Both the position numbers and the translations under genes were made by a program. Positions 20,470 to 27,479 of a stretch of DNA of 64,000 nt are shown here, in pieces. The stretch lies in NCBI GenBank assembly GCA_009993885.1, contig JAACSN010000008.1, forward strand, positions 30,362 to 94,361, read 5' to 3'. How positions within the stretch are numbered: position 1 is the stretch's first letter; each line of letters opens with the position of its first letter. Source of the stretch: Alphaproteobacteria bacterium. GTDB lineage: Bacteria > Pseudomonadota > Alphaproteobacteria > Caedimonadales > UBA9215. Under the pieces are notes generated by a model. That model worked only from the letters and a program-made list of their open reading frames with translations, did no database searches and was not told where the DNA came from.

Positions 20470-21195
20470 ATGAAAATAACAGACCTATTAAAAAAACTTT
20501 CTTTGCCGGCTGTCGCGGTTGCTTTTGCTCTACCTACTTATGCAAGTCTAAGCGATGATGAATTAGATGTTGTTGTAGACGGGCCAAAGGTTGTGGTGCT
20601 TGATACCATTAATGCCGGCCCTTTTACTATTAGTGTGATTGAGACAACTCTCGGTGAGAAATCAAAACGAAAAATGACAATGACTAGGGGAACTGTAGAG
20701 CAAGTTGTTGTTAATGTAGAGGGTTTTGTGGGAAAACATTCTTATTTTCGTGAGGGGGACGGTGAATTGGGGTCCAGCAACGGTCTCTTTTCTTTAGGAG
20801 GTGTGGTTTTAAATCTGAATGCAGCTATGGTGCAAGACATGTCCCTTAGTGAAGCTGTTGAAACCCAAGTGACACCGCTCCTTAAGTCTTTGGCAGAATC
20901 TAAAGAGCGTGCTTATGAAATTGCAGAGGAAAAAGCTCTTGAGAAGAAAGCCTATGCTGAGGAACAAGAAGAGCTTGCGCGCCAATTGGCGGAAGAAGAA
21001 GCCCTTGCTAAAAAATTGGCAGAGGAAGAAGCTCTTGCCCTGAAATTAGAGGCAGAAGAAGAAGCCCTTGCCCTAAGGTTAGAAGCAGAAGAAGCTCGGA
21101 GACTTGAGGAAGAAGCCCTTAGATTGGCAGAAGCACAAAAAGAAACCGTTGTTGTTCATGAAGAAGACACCCTTGACGAAGGAGATGATCTTTAA
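20470..21195 (+). CDS. Hypothetical exported protein with an acidic Glu/Ala/Leu repeat tail
   Basis: Signal peptide (LSLPAVAVAFALPTYAS). The C-terminal third is LAEEEALAKKLAEEEALALKLEAEEEALALRLEAEEARRLEEEALRLAEAQ. An SD (AAAGGAAAAG) precedes the ATG. Confidence 0.65.
   Translation: MKITDLLKKLSLPAVAVAFALPTYASLSDDELDVVVDGPKVVVLDTINAGPFTISVIETTLGEKSKRKMTMTRGTVEQVVVNVEGFVGKHSYFREGDGELGSSNGLFSLGGVVLNLNAAMVQDMSLSEAVETQVTPLLKSLAESKERAYEIAEEKALEKKAYAEEQEELARQLAEEEALAKKLAEEEALALKLEAEEEALALRLEAEEARRLEEEALRLAEAQKETVVVHEEDTLDEGDDL
20985..21135 (+). repeat. Degenerate tandem repeat of 30-33 bp, about 5 units, inside the CDS
   Basis: ttggcggaagaagaagcccttgctaaaaaa / ttggcagaggaagaagctcttgccctgaaa / ttagaggcagaagaagaagcccttgccctaagg / ... 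These units encode the (L/E)AEEEALAxxL repeats. Confidence 0.7.
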
Positions 21196-21216
21196 AAGTT
21201 TAATTCACTTTTTTCA

Positions 21217-21247
21217 AAAGGGGGCTTTCAGTGCCCCCTTTCTTTTG
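21217..21247 (+). terminator. Rho-independent terminator
   Basis: AAAGGGGGC-tttcagt-GCCCCCTTT followed by tcttttg. Confidence 0.75.
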
Positions 21248-21298
21248 ACAAAATCACGGGGTAATATTTTGGCCAAATTTTAAAAAAGGATTTTTAGG

Positions 21299-24581: not shown

Positions 24582-24654
24582 AAAGGAATTAAAGCTTTTT
24601 TTATGGAATAAATCTGTTAAAATTTTAAATAAATTAAAAAAAACAGGAAATACC

Positions 24655-25368
24655 ATGAAAAAAACGATCGCCTTTGTTGCCGTATGTCTTTTAAATTCAA
24701 CACCTTTAAAAGCAGAGGAAGATCGTCTTTCTCAGTCCGGTTTTTTTGTGGGTGCTCAGGCAGGGTATAATTATCTTGGTACTAAGATGGACACAACGTC
24801 TAATACAACGCCAAACGGTATTCAAATACTAAGTGTCTCTAATAAGAAATCTAAGCGAGCTCACAGTTTTACGGGAGGCGTCCTTATCGGTTATCTACGG
24901 GAAATTAATCAAAGATTTTTTGCCGGGGTTGACCTTGAAGGTAACTTTGATACGATCGATTTGAAACAAAAATTTTCTCAGAATTTACAAGACTTTGAAT
25001 ATAAAGCTTGCCGTCAATTTAACCTTTTACCCTCTTTTATCATCGGTGCGCAACTTGGTGAACGTTTCAAGCTCTTTTTAAAGCTTGGTTTTGCCTTATC
25101 TTCTTTTGAATATAGTGTGAAAAATAATACGGATAATATTAAAATAACACGTCGTTTGTTTGAGGTGGGTCTCGCGCCCTCCCTCGTAAATGAATTTAAA
25201 ATTAATCAGAATTTTGCTGTTTTGGCGACGGCAACTTATGAGTTTTATAAAAAATCTAAAGTGACTTTCCTTGGGACGATCTCTCCGGCTATTCCGACTG
25301 ATAATAATGTTTTAAAGATGCGCCCCAATAATTTTTCTTTAAAATTTGGCATAAAATATTATCTTTAA
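24655..25368 (+). CDS. Small outer-membrane beta-barrel protein (OMP_b-brl / Omp25-like)
   Basis: Signal peptide MKKTIAFVAVCLLNSTPLKA. It has alternating amphipathic strands (GFFVGAQAGYNY, FTGGVLIGY, FFAGVDLEGNF) and a C-terminal strand SLKFGIKYYL. Confidence 0.65.
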   Translation: MKKTIAFVAVCLLNSTPLKAEEDRLSQSGFFVGAQAGYNYLGTKMDTTSNTTPNGIQILSVSNKKSKRAHSFTGGVLIGYLREINQRFFAGVDLEGNFDTIDLKQKFSQNLQDFEYKACRQFNLLPSFIIGAQLGERFKLFLKLGFALSSFEYSVKNNTDNIKITRRLFEVGLAPSLVNEFKINQNFAVLATATYEFYKKSKVTFLGTISPAIPTDNNVLKMRPNNFSLKFGIKYYL

Positions 25369-25430
25369 TAGAAAATTAAGGTGTTTGCGTTACTCTGGCA
25401 GAGTAGAAAACTATTAATTGTGAGTATTTC

Positions 25431-27479
25431 ATGTTGAAAATTTTATTGATTTTATTTGTCTTTGTGGTTTTTCCTTTGGGGCAAGCCGACGCAGCTAAGC
25501 AAGCAATTATACAGCAATATGAATCTCAACAGCGCTCAACGATTACCGGTGGCGGGGATACAAGCGGCCTTCAGGCGGAAATAGAGAAATTAAAAAACGA
25601 ATTAAAAACGGCGAAAGGGGAAACGATTCCCGAACTCCAAAAGAAAATCAGAGAGTTGGAAAACGCTTCTAAAACGGGCGGGAACACTAGCGGTACGGGA
25701 AATACCGGTGGCACGACACCGATAACCGTTGAAGATCCAAAAACGCCAATTAATAACGCAACTCCTCCTATTGTTAGTAATATTCCTCCGCCGCCGGGCG
25801 GAAATATTCCGCCACCACCGCCCATTCTTGGTGCAAAGTTGCCCGATGGTGTGACGGAGGAAATGGAGGAAATTCGCAAGGCTTTCTTTGATAAATACAA
25901 GCTTGTTGCGAAGAAAATTAAGGACGGTAAATATCCTCCGGGATTGTGGGAAAAGGTTGAAGACCTCACAACCCATGCAAAATTTCAATCCAAGGTAGAC
26001 TCTGAGGTTAAGCGAGCTATTGATAACTATGCGGTTAGTAAAGGGCTTTTGGATGAGTTTATAAAAGCGTACGGTGAGAAAAAAGCAGGATTTAATACGC
26101 ACAAAGATCACCTCTATAAGTGGTTTGTCTATTTAACGGATTTTACGATACGGGCCGGAAAATATAAAACACTCACATGGCCTGTTCAGCCCAAAGGAAC
26201 ATTGACTGATGACCTCTATTGGAAGCTTATGTTAACCCTAAAGGGAAACTATAATTTGATGCTTCAAGACTTGAAAGAGACCCTGGAAAAAGCGGAAGAA
26301 CTTGCTAGAAAAGCGGAAGAGGCTGAAAAGGCAAAAACCACAACGGGTAAATTTTTGTTTGCTCTCGGGGACGGCAATGCCGTTAAAAAAGATATAGGGC
26401 GTTTGTTTACGGTGCCTCTCTTTAGGCAGAAAACGATTGCTCATTACGGTGATCTTTTGATGACTGCAAAAACAACTGATCCTGACGGACAAAAAACGGC
26501 AGAGGCTCTTTTTTCTTGGATGTTTGAGCGTCTTGTTCTTCCCTTCCTGCCCTCTGATGTGAGTGCTATTTCTCTTCAAGGTAATTTGAGGGCGGCTATG
26601 ATCAAGGCTGTTCAAGAAAAAGGGATTGAAGACCAAGCTGCTTTGGAAGACTATTTAAAAGATCAAGAAAAGTCTAAGCTTCTGATGAAGGCTATGGATG
26701 ATGCCCTTAAGGATGTTATCTTAGCAAACGGTATTCCGGCTATTAAACAAGGCGCTAAGCCTTTAAGTATCCCGACGATCTCTAACGTTCAACCGGAATA
26801 TGAACAAATTCTTTTGTTTGCCGTTCAAGAAAAGCTCAATGCCGCTGTTCAAGCACCTTTGCAGAAACTTTTGGATGAGGTTTTAGAAAAAGCTCCCCTT
26901 TCAGGAGGCGCGCAGGCCCTTGAAGCAAAGCTTTTAGAAATCTTGAAGGCAGGATTAAAGACGGTCTTTGCCGAGCATCAATCTATCACCTTACAGCTTA
27001 AAGGAGAGAGTGTCGGATATGATTTCTGGACGTGGACGAAAAATTTTGGAAATCCGAATGCTCCGATCATTAAAACAGCACAAGACCGTATAAAGGTTCT
27101 TATTGAAACCTACCAAAAAGACTTGTTGGCTTTCCATGGGGGAACTAAGACATTACCGCCCTTTATGCAGCCCATTACCGATTTTGCTTACTTAGAATCG
27201 GATATAAAAGTTGATGATGCCTTTTTAACTCAATACGCTAAGTTGATTTTGAAAGGGGTGGATACCGTGATCAAAGAAAATAAAGCCGAATATAGCAAAA
27301 TTAAAGACAGTAACAAACAAGAGCGTGAGCTTGTCTTAGTGGGGGTTGAAGCCGTGAAATCTCCGATGAGTAAATTCTTGAACATTAAAGACTCGAAAAT
27401 TGCAGGTTCAGGAAATATGAGGCAAGAAGTACAGCCCTATGTTGATATGTTGGTTGCTGCTCATTTATTGCAGGATTAG
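25431..27479 (+). CDS. Large exported protein with a coiled-coil N-terminus and a polyproline tract
   Basis: Signal peptide MLKILLILFVFVVFPLGQADA, followed by a Gly/Thr-rich linker and IPPPPGGNIPPPPPILG. The remaining roughly 540 aa are unassigned. Confidence 0.65.
   Translation: MLKILLILFVFVVFPLGQADAAKQAIIQQYESQQRSTITGGGDTSGLQAEIEKLKNELKTAKGETIPELQKKIRELENASKTGGNTSGTGNTGGTTPITVEDPKTPINNATPPIVSNIPPPPGGNIPPPPPILGAKLPDGVTEEMEEIRKAFFDKYKLVAKKIKDGKYPPGLWEKVEDLTTHAKFQSKVDSEVKRAIDNYAVSKGLLDEFIKAYGEKKAGFNTHKDHLYKWFVYLTDFTIRAGKYKTLTWPVQPKGTLTDDLYWKLMLTLKGNYNLMLQDLKETLEKAEELARKAEEAEKAKTTTGKFLFALGDGNAVKKDIGRLFTVPLFRQKTIAHYGDLLMTAKTTDPDGQKTAEALFSWMFERLVLPFLPSDVSAISLQGNLRAAMIKAVQEKGIEDQAALEDYLKDQEKSKLLMKAMDDALKDVILANGIPAIKQGAKPLSIPTISNVQPEYEQILLFAVQEKLNAAVQAPLQKLLDEVLEKAPLSGGAQALEAKLLEILKAGLKTVFAEHQSITLQLKGESVGYDFWTWTKNFGNPNAPIIKTAQDRIKVLIETYQKDLLAFHGGTKTLPPFMQPITDFAYLESDIKVDDAFLTQYAKLILKGVDTVIKENKAEYSKIKDSNKQERELVLVGVEAVKSPMSKFLNIKDSKIAGSGNMRQEVQPYVDMLVAAHLLQD

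Follow-up and report, generated by a model that had tools for sequence, protein, structure and literature searches.

A lineage-specific string of genes for exported-type proteins

The five consecutive genes at positions 20470-27479 of the window (the whole stretch of 64,000 nt that was analysed), referred to here as O1 to O5, are real and lineage-specific. We read them, with a probability of about 0.6, as an eroding string of about three units, the products of which are exported through Sec and are either envelope proteins or secreted. The genome that carries the array is 1.53 Mb in size and belongs to a reduced Holosporales (Alphaproteobacteria) symbiont, the relatives of which are named 'Holosporales bacterium' in the source records. 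All five ORFs lie on the + strand: O1 (20470-21195; 241 aa, acidic), O2 (21299-23683; 794 aa, GTG start), O3 (23709-24581; 290 aa, Cys-rich) and O5 (25431-27479; 682 aa, all-alpha) encode predicted exported proteins, and O4 (24655-25368; 237 aa) was assigned to the small outer-membrane protein (OMP) beta-barrels of the OMP_b-brl / OmpA-TM type. The spacers between them measure 103, 25, 73 and 62 nt. Upstream of the array are rplY and pth, and downstream, 6 nt past the stop codon of O5, begins the gene for 5-formyltetrahydrofolate cyclo-ligase (5-FCL; 27486-28058, + strand; TIGR02727, 131 bits against a cut-off of 84.9). An earlier note on this DNA had listed these five same-strand ORFs with separations of 25-103 nt and with housekeeping genes, rplY-pth and 5-FCL, on either side, and the measured array is exactly as it was listed. 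Its statement that no family could be named apart from the barrel stands as well: O1, O2, O3 and O5 have no sequence match in Pfam, NCBIfam or PDB, and for O1-O5 no homology beyond the genus was found except for the C-terminal domain of O2 and the barrel family of O4. Relative to the closest relative, dN/dS is 0.44 for O1, 0.21 for O2, 0.34 for O3, 0.10 for O4 and 0.13 for O5; purifying selection acts on all five genes.

Signal peptides were called by our own Kyte-Doolittle/von Heijne heuristic, a permissive one by which 22.5% of the ORFs in the genome are positive. By this measure the signal-peptide-like starts that had been described for all five proteins were found in 5/5, each N-terminus having positive charge, a hydrophobic core and a -3/-1 cleavage site, and TM segments after the signal region are absent in O1-O5. 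The signal regions of O5 and O2 are conserved among orthologues. From such sequence features we infer the actual export and the final location of the five proteins. In Holospora obtusa, stage-specific periplasmic proteins of 89 kDa, 63 kDa and 5.4 kDa are kept in the periplasm until their release toward the host (PMC11909080). O1-O5 are like them in being signal-bearing Holosporales orphans with little homology outside the lineage, whereas the genome analysed here comes from another family of the order.

Piecewise loss in relatives and three probable expression units

Comparison of nine related loci, all close kin, shows that the five-gene array goes back to the ancestor of a sub-clade within one genus and is now being eroded block by block. 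In the syntenic slot, O2 and O3 have been deleted jointly in one related genome, O3 alone in another, and O4 and O5 jointly in a third (L014). That the array was ancestrally complete is shown by remnants of the lost genes at the deletion junctions: the tail of O5, VDGFIAAHVLQD with its stop codon, persists before the 5-FCL gene in L014, only 3' remnants of O3 are left in the spacers of G003 and G002, and in G002 the terminator of O1 is joined to the O3 tail. Block losses are few, with a single event each for O2-O3 and O4-O5. O3 is intact in this genome and is decaying across the clade; of the related loci spanning its position, most have lost it by inactivation or deletion, its lesions including a nonsense mutation (L011), a frameshift (L012), an IS30 insertion (L036), two deletions, and truncated or IS-fused copies; in P0022 it is fused to a TnpB tail. 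Since relatives lose genes piece by piece, the array is not one obligate machine. Rather, it would have been assembled in the ancestor of the sub-clade and lost piecewise since then. From conserved non-coding elements and the boundaries of the deletions, we infer the operon boundaries and divide the array into what are probably three expression units: O1, O2 (with O3), and O4-O5. Methyltransferase-like motifs in O3 did not lead to a confirmed identity; methyltransferase HMMs gave no match, and hhalign of O3 against the genome's own methyltransferases gave a probability of 9% over 18 columns.

The first unit is O1, which is very acidic (52 D+E in 241 aa) and comprises an N-terminal domain of ~120 aa and, after it, a coiled-coil repeat of the EEALA type, with a signal cleavage predicted by the heuristic between TYA and S. 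The acidic repeat noted previously was located as a tandem array of 30-33 nt in ~3.5 copies at 20984-21095. An orthologue of O1 is present in 5/5 relatives for which the slot was recovered up to its upstream end, and matches are limited to the genus. Downstream of O1, on the + strand at 21217-21250, lies an element defined by sequence, fold and conservation in 5 genomes. It comprises a hairpin at 21217-21241 (AAAGGGGGC-7 nt-GCCCCCTTT, then TTTCTTTTG), that is, a 9-bp GC-rich stem, a 7-nt loop and a T-run, and, directly 3' of it, an invariant TTGACA (21245-21250); all three features, hairpin, T-run and hexamer, are kept. The strong terminator that had been placed at 21217 is thus real, and a consensus terminator scanner omitted the hairpin from its list. 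O1 is probably monocistronic, and as a repeat or coiled-coil protein with its own terminator it would probably belong to a periplasmic or surface coat. The TTGACA could serve O2 as its -35 element; a good -10 element accompanying it was not found.

The barrel O4 and its neighbour O5

O4 matches Pfam OMP_b-brl with E = 1.2e-5 and 26.0 bits, just below the curated cut-off of 28.7, and 8/10 of its orthologues and paralogues match the same family (PF13505; best E = 9.8e-11), in agreement with its earlier description as a small OMP barrel. Its N-terminus carries a signal peptide, and its C-terminal end is hydrophobic and resembles a beta-signal. Matches to the O4 family occur in 15/23 genomes of the order, and three paralogues are encoded in its own genome, where paralogous barrels also adjoin exported repeat proteins. 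Judged from these matches, O4 is one paralogue of an ordinary multi-copy, order-wide family of small OMPs. The closest known systems are the 8-stranded outer-membrane barrels (PF13505, PF01389, and the Omp25/Omp31 and Msp2/WSP-type paralogue families of Alphaproteobacteria), with which O4 shares its size of ~217 mature residues, the signal peptide, an alternating strand pattern, the hydrophobic C-terminal end and the presence of paralogues within the genome. Unlike them, O4, compared by sequence, stays just under the Pfam cut-off, and its constant pairing with the large exported protein O5 is not described for those families. With only ~217 mature residues, O4 is too small for translocating a partner.

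The region upstream of O4 (24535-24654, + strand) is kept in 7 loci, whether it stands behind O3, an O2 remnant or O1. It contains a ribosome-binding site and a perfect palindrome, TTAAAATTTTAA, at 24617-24628, the extended motif of which has a single occurrence in the genome, and probably acts as promoter or operator for an O4-O5 unit. The spacer between O5 and the 5-FCL gene is 6-12 nt in all loci, and 5-FCL is probably co-transcribed with O4-O5. O5 itself consists of a signal peptide, a conserved coiled coil (~aa 45-82), a variable linker rich in Gly/Thr/Pro (~83-137) and a conserved domain of ~540 aa, and contains 0 Cys residues. Its polyproline, also mentioned in the earlier note, is IPPPPGGNIPPPPP at 25782-25823. 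Homologues of O5 occur within the genus only, and among the orthologues (11 aligned) the proline tract varies in length and sequence, with proline runs of <=2 in P0005 and an interrupted tract in P0004, and the flanking domain is highly conserved. The AlphaFold2 model of O5 is poor (pLDDT 54.5, pTM 0.29), and O5 gave neither a Foldseek match nor a PDB profile match. In the third unit, O4 would be a small barrel inserted by BAM into the outer membrane, and O5 a large exported all-alpha protein whose coiled coil forms a stalk and whose proline-rich linker is flexible, both transcribed together with the 5-FCL gene.

A closer association of these two products is conceivable, though we consider it unlikely: O4 and O5 could form a two-gene surface module, in which O5, docked on the barrel through its coiled-coil N-terminus, would be an adhesin or bind the host, its large helical domain being kept off the membrane by the proline-rich linker. 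Consistent with this, O4 lies directly upstream of O5 in 7/7 related loci covering the position, an adjacency that holds down to 57% O5 identity; the two genes are removed together in L014, have the conserved upstream element in common and are the most constrained of the block by dN/dS, and the position of the paralogous barrels beside exported repeat proteins points the same way. O4 and O5 are the sole pair of the array that stays together. However, one shared deletion together with shared presence among close kin is a weak argument for a coupling, O5 is linked equally tightly to the housekeeping gene for 5-FCL, a contact between the proteins has neither structural nor co-variation support, and the O5 model is of low confidence.

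A rare C-terminal domain in O2

The most interesting part of the array is the C-terminal domain of O2, a rare, unnamed protein domain. Residues 1-23 of O2 resemble a signal peptide; residues ~25-177 form a low-confidence region of the AlphaFold2 model, ~180-420 form ARM/HEAT-like helical repeats, and 421-776 (22559-23626, + strand) make up the conserved helical domain of ~350 aa. The model is all-alpha, with a mean pLDDT of 65.7 and values of 70-90 across most of residues 280-794. Full-length orthologues of O2 are restricted to the genus. When a profile was searched against 1.84 billion representative proteins, 71 matches were obtained, nearly all in the C-terminal region only, and in 44/47 full-length proteins the domain is at the C-terminus. 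Three residues are near-invariant: C575 (23021-23023), H653 (23255-23257) and D681 (23339-23341), the codons of which were checked. Across 74 copies of the domain, the Cys is conserved in 71/71, the His in 72/73 and the Asp in 72/73, and further motifs are CxxGKxxG and EPPHQxxY. These three residues are most likely an enzyme active site, a metal site being the alternative, which makes the domain a candidate for an effector domain of the thiol-enzyme or metal-binding kind. In the second unit, the helical-repeat scaffold with its Cys-His-Asp domain would probably, once exported, act on a target in the host or the envelope, and O3 would be dispensable behind it.

The domain was found in 9/23 genomes of the order and in 7/401 sampled alphaproteobacterial genomes, all of 1.6-2.5 Mb; in this class sample there are up to 5 copies per genome, and tandem sets occur. 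Because the family is rare and multi-copy and belongs to small-genome Alphaproteobacteria, its distribution fits a host-interaction role. The delivery route is ambiguous, since a signal-like N-terminus is present in 21/47 full-length proteins with the domain, about half being without one.

Polymorphic toxin and effector families have a variable N-terminus, a conserved C-terminal domain and an adjacent immunity gene. The O2 family is like them in its variable N-termini, conserved C-terminal domain, several copies and tandem arrays. In contrast, the gene that follows O2 is not a conserved partner, O3 decaying or being deleted while O2 is intact, and trafficking domains such as PAAR, Rhs or MIX are absent. 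Ligases of the IpaH/SspH type combine an LRR repeat scaffold with a C-terminal, all-helical catalytic domain, the NEL E3 ligase, which has an essential Cys. O2 would parallel these ligases in its N-terminal solenoid of variable length, in its all-alpha C-terminal domain of ~300-350 aa with an invariant Cys, and in forming a multi-copy family in host-associated bacteria. It differs from them in that its solenoid is ARM/HEAT-like and not LRR, its motif is CxxGKxxG and not CxD, many members carry Sec signals and not T3SS signals, and its C-terminal domain has no Pfam match, NEL included, and no PDB profile match.

It is rather improbable that the five genes encode ordinary lineage-specific structural proteins of the envelope or periplasm with no host role, the Cys-His-Asp trio of O2 being a structural metal site. 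Cys, His and Asp commonly act as Zn ligands, and O2 has no fold match to any enzyme: Foldseek with the O2 model returned alpha-solenoids only (TM <=0.22), with no thiol-enzyme fold among the matches. The Sec-type signals, near which no dedicated secretion partner is encoded, and the dispensability of parts of the array in relatives would also be in keeping with such proteins. Against this, the O2 domain occurs only in small, presumably host-dependent genomes, and its multiple copies, tandem duplication and fusion to highly variable N-terminal repeats form a pattern that suits effector or toxin families better than envelope housekeeping.

Separate units and not a single surface module

The earlier note had proposed that the exported, surface-type proteins form a host-interaction block and a single functional unit around the barrel. 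The first part is supported by the exported-type proteins, unnamed apart from the barrel, by the reduced genome, which also carries a T6SS sheath gene, and by the rare O2 family. A single module for surface display or adhesion, with the O4 barrel as the anchor that would fix the other four products to the cell surface, is very unlikely. In its favour are the common strand, the short spacers, the 5/5 signal-like N-termini and the deletion remnants, which point to an array that was once complete. The five genes are also the longest run of consecutive same-strand, signal-peptide-like genes in the genome; however, since shuffled gene orders reach a run of >=5 in 13.6% of trials, this clustering is only suggestive and not statistically compelling. 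Co-conservation of the five genes is largely lacking in the syntenic slots of related genomes, where O2+O3, O3, and O4+O5 are lost separately and the rest stays intact under purifying selection. A single unit is further disfavoured because O1 has its own conserved terminator and O4 its own conserved upstream element regardless of the preceding gene, and one centred on the barrel because O4 is one of several paralogues of a family that is common across the order without these partners, and of a size, that of eight strands, that cannot translocate them.

That O5 manipulates host actin, its polyproline downstream of the coiled coil serving as a profilin- or EVH1-binding module like that of formin FH1 or ActA/RickA and its helical domain nucleating or binding actin, is most improbable: Holospora relatives do use host actin and release periplasmic proteins of unknown family during invasion (PMC11909080), but the proline tract is poorly conserved among O5 orthologues, O5 has no FH2, WH2 or other Pfam match and no PDB or Foldseek similarity, and no route across the outer membrane was identified, a canonical T2SS secretin or T4SS VirB4 not being found.

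Five exported-type genes precede the 5-FCL gene

Five genes lie on the plus strand between rplY-pth and the gene for 5-formyltetrahydrofolate cyclo-ligase (5-FCL): O1 (20470-21195, 241 aa), an acidic repeat protein whose repeat is a tandem array with a unit of 30-33 nt; O2 (21299-23683, 794 aa), with AAGGA ahead of a GTG start; the Cys-rich O3 (23709-24581, 290 aa); the small barrel O4 (24655-25368, 237 aa); and O5 (25431-27479, 682 aa). Successive genes are separated by 103, 25, 73 and 62 nt, and the 5-FCL gene (TIGR02727, 131 bits) begins 6 nt past the end of O5. The window corresponds to C13:30362-94361 of an assembly of 1.53 Mb that is 94% complete, and near-identical proteins carry the public name 'Holosporales bacterium'. 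The GC content of the region is ~0.40, with no compositional break. Measured against the locus of the closest relative (L011), dN/dS was 0.44 for O1, 0.21 for O2, 0.34 for O3, 0.10 for O4 and 0.13 for O5, and all five are genuine coding genes.

Each of the five N-termini has a charged start, a hydrophobic core and a –3/–1 site, with no later transmembrane segment, as called by a home-made heuristic, not by SignalP. Together they make up the longest same-strand run of signal-like genes in the genome, although a run of five was reached in 13.6% of shuffled gene orders. An earlier note, made from the sequence alone, had described five exported-type ORFs here, and this description proved accurate: the coordinates and spacers are exact, all five N-termini are signal-like and the terminator behind O1 is real. 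It had also stated that only the barrel resembles a nameable family, which was borne out in that Pfam, NCBIfam and PDB sequence searches with O1-O5 returned no named family except a sub-threshold OMP_b-brl match for O4.

The array is eroding block by block in relatives

Full-length homologues of O1, O2, O3 and O5 were found in same-genus MAGs only, and two genomes of the genus (G001 and G004) gave no O2 or O5 match. We retrieved the slot from rplY to 5-FCL from several relatives and compared the copies by tblastn. In the window all five genes are intact. The closest relative, which is ~90% identical, has all five with an in-frame stop in O3; O3 is frameshifted in the related locus L012, carries an IS30-family transposase in L036 (from a ~94% identical relative), and in the metagenomic protein P0022 its C-terminal half is fused to a TnpB tail. 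Larger blocks are missing elsewhere, namely O3 from genome G003, O2 and O3 from genome G002, and O4 and O5 from locus L014. The last 15-30 codons of O3 are still encoded in the O2-O4 spacer of G003 and in the O1-O4 spacer of G002, where the O3 remnant is joined straight onto the O1 terminator, and in L014 the O5 C-terminus, VDGFIAAHVLQD with its stop, persists in the spacer ahead of 5-FCL. These remnants indicate that the absences are secondary deletions, and thus that the ancestor of this sub-clade had the full five-gene array, which is now being lost one block at a time.

The different deletions amount to a natural dissection of the array that reveals its separable parts. O3 has been struck many times independently across relatives, which, together with the block-wise erosion, is not how an obligate machine of five parts would be expected to behave. 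We conclude that exported-protein genes specific to this lineage form a decaying string here, in about three separable units, and that as a whole the locus is of an ordinary kind, lineage-specific secretome genes in reductive decay. The proposal in the earlier note that the five genes form a single surface-display or adhesion module anchored by the O4 barrel is accordingly only partly supported: the erosion by blocks and the roughly three separable units speak against a single unit, and O4-O5 is left as a conserved pair of a barrel and a large protein that is a candidate for surface tethering.

Insertion sequences are actively breaking the region from O3 to beyond 5-FCL, judged from L036 (JGI Ga0615115_002267; elements at 1-738 on the minus strand and at 5149-5610), in which an IS200/IS605 Y1 transposase also truncates a 195-aa gene 3' of 5-FCL. 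At 29736-30722 of the window, past 5-FCL and a 195/317-aa membrane pair, the same strand carries the gene for a sixth exported orphan. This protein of 328 aa is acidic (61 D+E) and rich in coiled coils, with a dN/dS of 0.43 and a length that varies in relatives; the string of exported proteins thus continues beyond the O5/5-FCL end of the cluster. Paralogy between this protein and O1 was rejected, their match being of low complexity only (E = 0.043).

The genes fall into three putative expression units

The O1 terminator (21217-21241 plus a T-run) consists of a hairpin which, with its T-run and an adjoining TTGACA, is kept in each of the five genomes with O1-O2. About 120 nt 5' of O4 are conserved in seven loci, whichever gene precedes, and the gap between O5 and 5-FCL is 6-12 nt in all loci. 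Because of these three features, we infer three probable units: O1; O2, perhaps with O3; and O4-O5-FCL, possibly extending further. A perfect 12-bp palindrome, TTAAAATTTTAA, is located within this conserved stretch at 24617-24628, 27 nt 5' of the O4 start, and is kept in six of seven related loci. It might serve as an operator; that it is a regulatory motif recurring elsewhere was rejected, since it is essentially unique in the genome, where the extended 17-mer occurs once.

The C-terminal domain of O2 is a candidate effector domain

Most worth following up is the C-terminal domain of O2 (aa 421-776). A profile of five O2 orthologues was searched against 1.84 billion representative proteins and found 71, most of which have only O2 residues ~420-775 in common; the exceptions were O2's own orthologue cluster with its N-terminal fragment, and one weak repeat-like N-terminal match. 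The domain is C-terminal in 44 of 47 full-length proteins (700-2259 aa), which have unrelated repeat-rich N-termini and, in 21 of the 47, signal-like starts. No Pfam domain was found in any of the homologues. Among 74 aligned domain copies, C575 was conserved in 71/71, H653 in 72/73 and D681 in 72/73, and the trio, positioned in CxxGKxxG and EPPHQxxY motifs, was invariant in two further alignments (A4 and A6) as well.

The distribution of the domain is restricted, with multiple copies in small genomes. Within the order, 9 of 23 genomes had it; in an even class-wide sample it was present in 7 of 401 genomes, all seven of them 1.6-2.5 Mb in size, with as many as five copies and with tandem sets. 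A search for related loci with narrower alignments of the domain gave three genome and five metagenome loci. In a class-level relative of ~2.5 Mb, three tandem genes within 9 kb (G084:C82:21137-30052) each code for a protein of 1085-1182 aa that carries this C-terminal domain, in what looks like a local family expansion; this genome holds five copies in total. The family is decaying in other lineages too, as seen in locus L027 (Ga0299912_10000379), where a premature stop removes the last ~60 residues of a homologue at 1423-2448, called as the 251-aa protein P0032.

An AlphaFold2 model of O2 (12-row alignment) was all-helical, with pLDDT of 70-90 over most of residues 280-794, local values of 77-86 at C575, H653 and D681, and regular, repeat-like helix pairs ahead of the C-terminal domain. 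Foldseek with the whole model retrieved CRM1, PP2A-A, beta-catenin, importin and AP2 (probability up to 0.99, E ~1e-3, TM 0.1-0.27), that is, generic HEAT/ARM solenoids only and no thiol-enzyme fold. Pfam gave no repeat matches in O2. From the model, residues ~180-420 are a candidate ARM/HEAT-like alpha-solenoid.

Our best guess is that the C-terminal domain may be a secreted enzyme-type effector, because of the trio, the C-terminal place, the variable scaffolds, the expansion in copy number and the restriction to small genomes, taken together. The conservation of the trio is as would be expected of Cys-His-Asp thiol enzymes (papain-, transglutaminase- and NEL-like), whereas likeness in fold or sequence was not found: the modelled domain is all-alpha, in contrast to the alpha+beta fold of the papain type, and a PDB profile search with the domain was empty. 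The main alternative is that the same Cys-His-Asp residues form a metal site. The full reading would be that the C-terminal 350 residues of O2 are a previously undescribed, all-helical Cys-His-Asp enzyme domain with a CxxGKxxG motif, carried on secreted repeat-scaffold effectors whose expansion in host-dependent Alphaproteobacteria with small genomes (Holosporales and a few further lineages) would serve the manipulation of eukaryotic hosts; we give this a probability of roughly one in three. If true, the architecture of O2 would parallel the repeat-plus-catalytic-domain effectors of gamma-proteobacterial pathogens. A Walker-A reading of CSGGKS in O2 was rejected by eye, the spacing being wrong and the Ser unconserved in homologues.

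Holosporales are obligate protist symbionts, and to our knowledge next to nothing is known of the proteins by which they interact with their hosts. The present genome contains a T6SS sheath gene and two secretins, both under the GspD cut-off; VirB4 was not found in it. The few that have been studied, those of 89, 63 and 5.4 kDa from Holospora, belong to no recognisable families, and in Holospora orphan proteins are stored in the periplasm and released on invasion (PMC11909080). For O1-O5, such storage and release may be taken as a precedent, not as evidence.

Neither a methyltransferase nor an immunity role was supported for O3

O3 contains mostly conserved motifs that resemble those of methyltransferases, VVLGCG, YT(V/I)DL and HLKPGGTL, with a Cys/His-rich insert after motif I. 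Neither HMMs nor profiles supported a class I SAM-dependent methyltransferase, and at that level the reading was rejected: methyltransferase families were not matched by any of seven O3 homologues at E <= 10, O3 was not among the 16 genome-wide Methyltransf_11 matches, an hhalign comparison with class I methyltransferases of the same genome gave 9% probability over 18 columns of the LKPGG segment only, and a PDB profile search with the O3 alignment returned nothing. A role as immunity partner of O2, in a polymorphic toxin-immunity pair, was rejected on the different fates of the two genes: most related loci that span O3 have it as a pseudogene or have lost it, while O2 stays intact, with dN/dS of 0.15-0.21.

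O4 and O5 are the second candidate for follow-up

After the O2 domain, the O4-O5 pair most merits follow-up. The 11 O5 orthologues (57-100% identity) all have a cleavable signal; their coiled coil is conserved, and the C-terminal ~540 aa are highly conserved. The polyproline of O5 (25782-25823) lies within a Gly/Thr/Pro linker that varies in length and sequence among the 11; it is nearly absent in the homologue P0005, and across orthologues only the proline-rich character of the tract is retained. The simpler reading of this linker is a flexible spacer. Mimicry of a formin FH1-FH2 or other proline-rich actin regulator was not supported, as the polyproline is not conserved and no FH2, WH2 or other actin-binding domain was found (Pfam/NCBIfam, E <= 0.1). 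The FH1-like reading is weakened by the variable linker, by the AlphaFold2 model from 11 orthologues, which is all-alpha and of low confidence (pLDDT 54.5, pTM 0.29), and by the searches, in which Foldseek with this model found nothing meaningful (best E = 1.4) and O5 had no PDB sequence or profile match.

O4 scored 26.0 bits against PF13505 (OMP_b-brl; cut-off 28.7, E = 1.2e-5). Eight of ten aligned orthologues and paralogues match this family (E <= 0.01, best 9.8e-11), four of them also OmpA_membrane, and a PDB profile search with the O4 alignment gave only a marginal match to the OmpA signal peptide. By the heuristic, the O4 signal peptide is cleaved at LKA|EE, and other members of the family have signal peptides too. 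The C-terminal end, FGIKYYL, like LYKF, LLKI and VIYI in paralogues, is hydrophobic/aromatic and of the beta-signal type. Three paralogues occur in the same genome, and of 23 genomes from the order 15 contain family matches. From its sequence, O4 is thus best placed as an ordinary outer-membrane barrel of a multi-copy small-barrel family. Type V secretion, autotransporter or two-partner, calls for a large barrel beside the passenger, either of 12 strands (autotransporter) or of 16 strands with POTRA domains (Omp85/TpsB). As a basis of surface display this was not supported: O4 matches small-barrel families only and is too small to export anything, and no autotransporter, ShlB or POTRA family matched O1-O5.

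The O4 orthologue of G003 (L016, G003:C178, 3813-4526) shares 52% identity with the window copy, as against 72% for the flanking O2 and 77% for the flanking O5, which suggests that change in the barrel was accelerated in this lineage, probably in the loops.

Exported repeat-rich orphans are also neighbours of two paralogous barrels at other sites in the genome, a hint at a 'barrel plus exported neighbour' habit that adds some colour and proves nothing. At the first (L019, G000:C9:115129-118800; genes at 1486-2172 and 433-1398 on the minus strand and 2620-3210 on the plus strand), an exported protein of 321 aa with five tandem VDAGNVAAAVALAGVPLA repeats is encoded 88 nt downstream of the barrel gene, and ahead of the barrel lies a divergent gene for an exported protein of 196 aa; the N-termini of these two exported proteins are paralogous. 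At the second (L018, G000:C14:97275-100964), the neighbour, at 2411-3688 on the plus strand, encodes an exported, Ala-rich protein that is at least 426 aa long and has repeats in its interior (…AYI(E/K)AIAGGIAAPT…).
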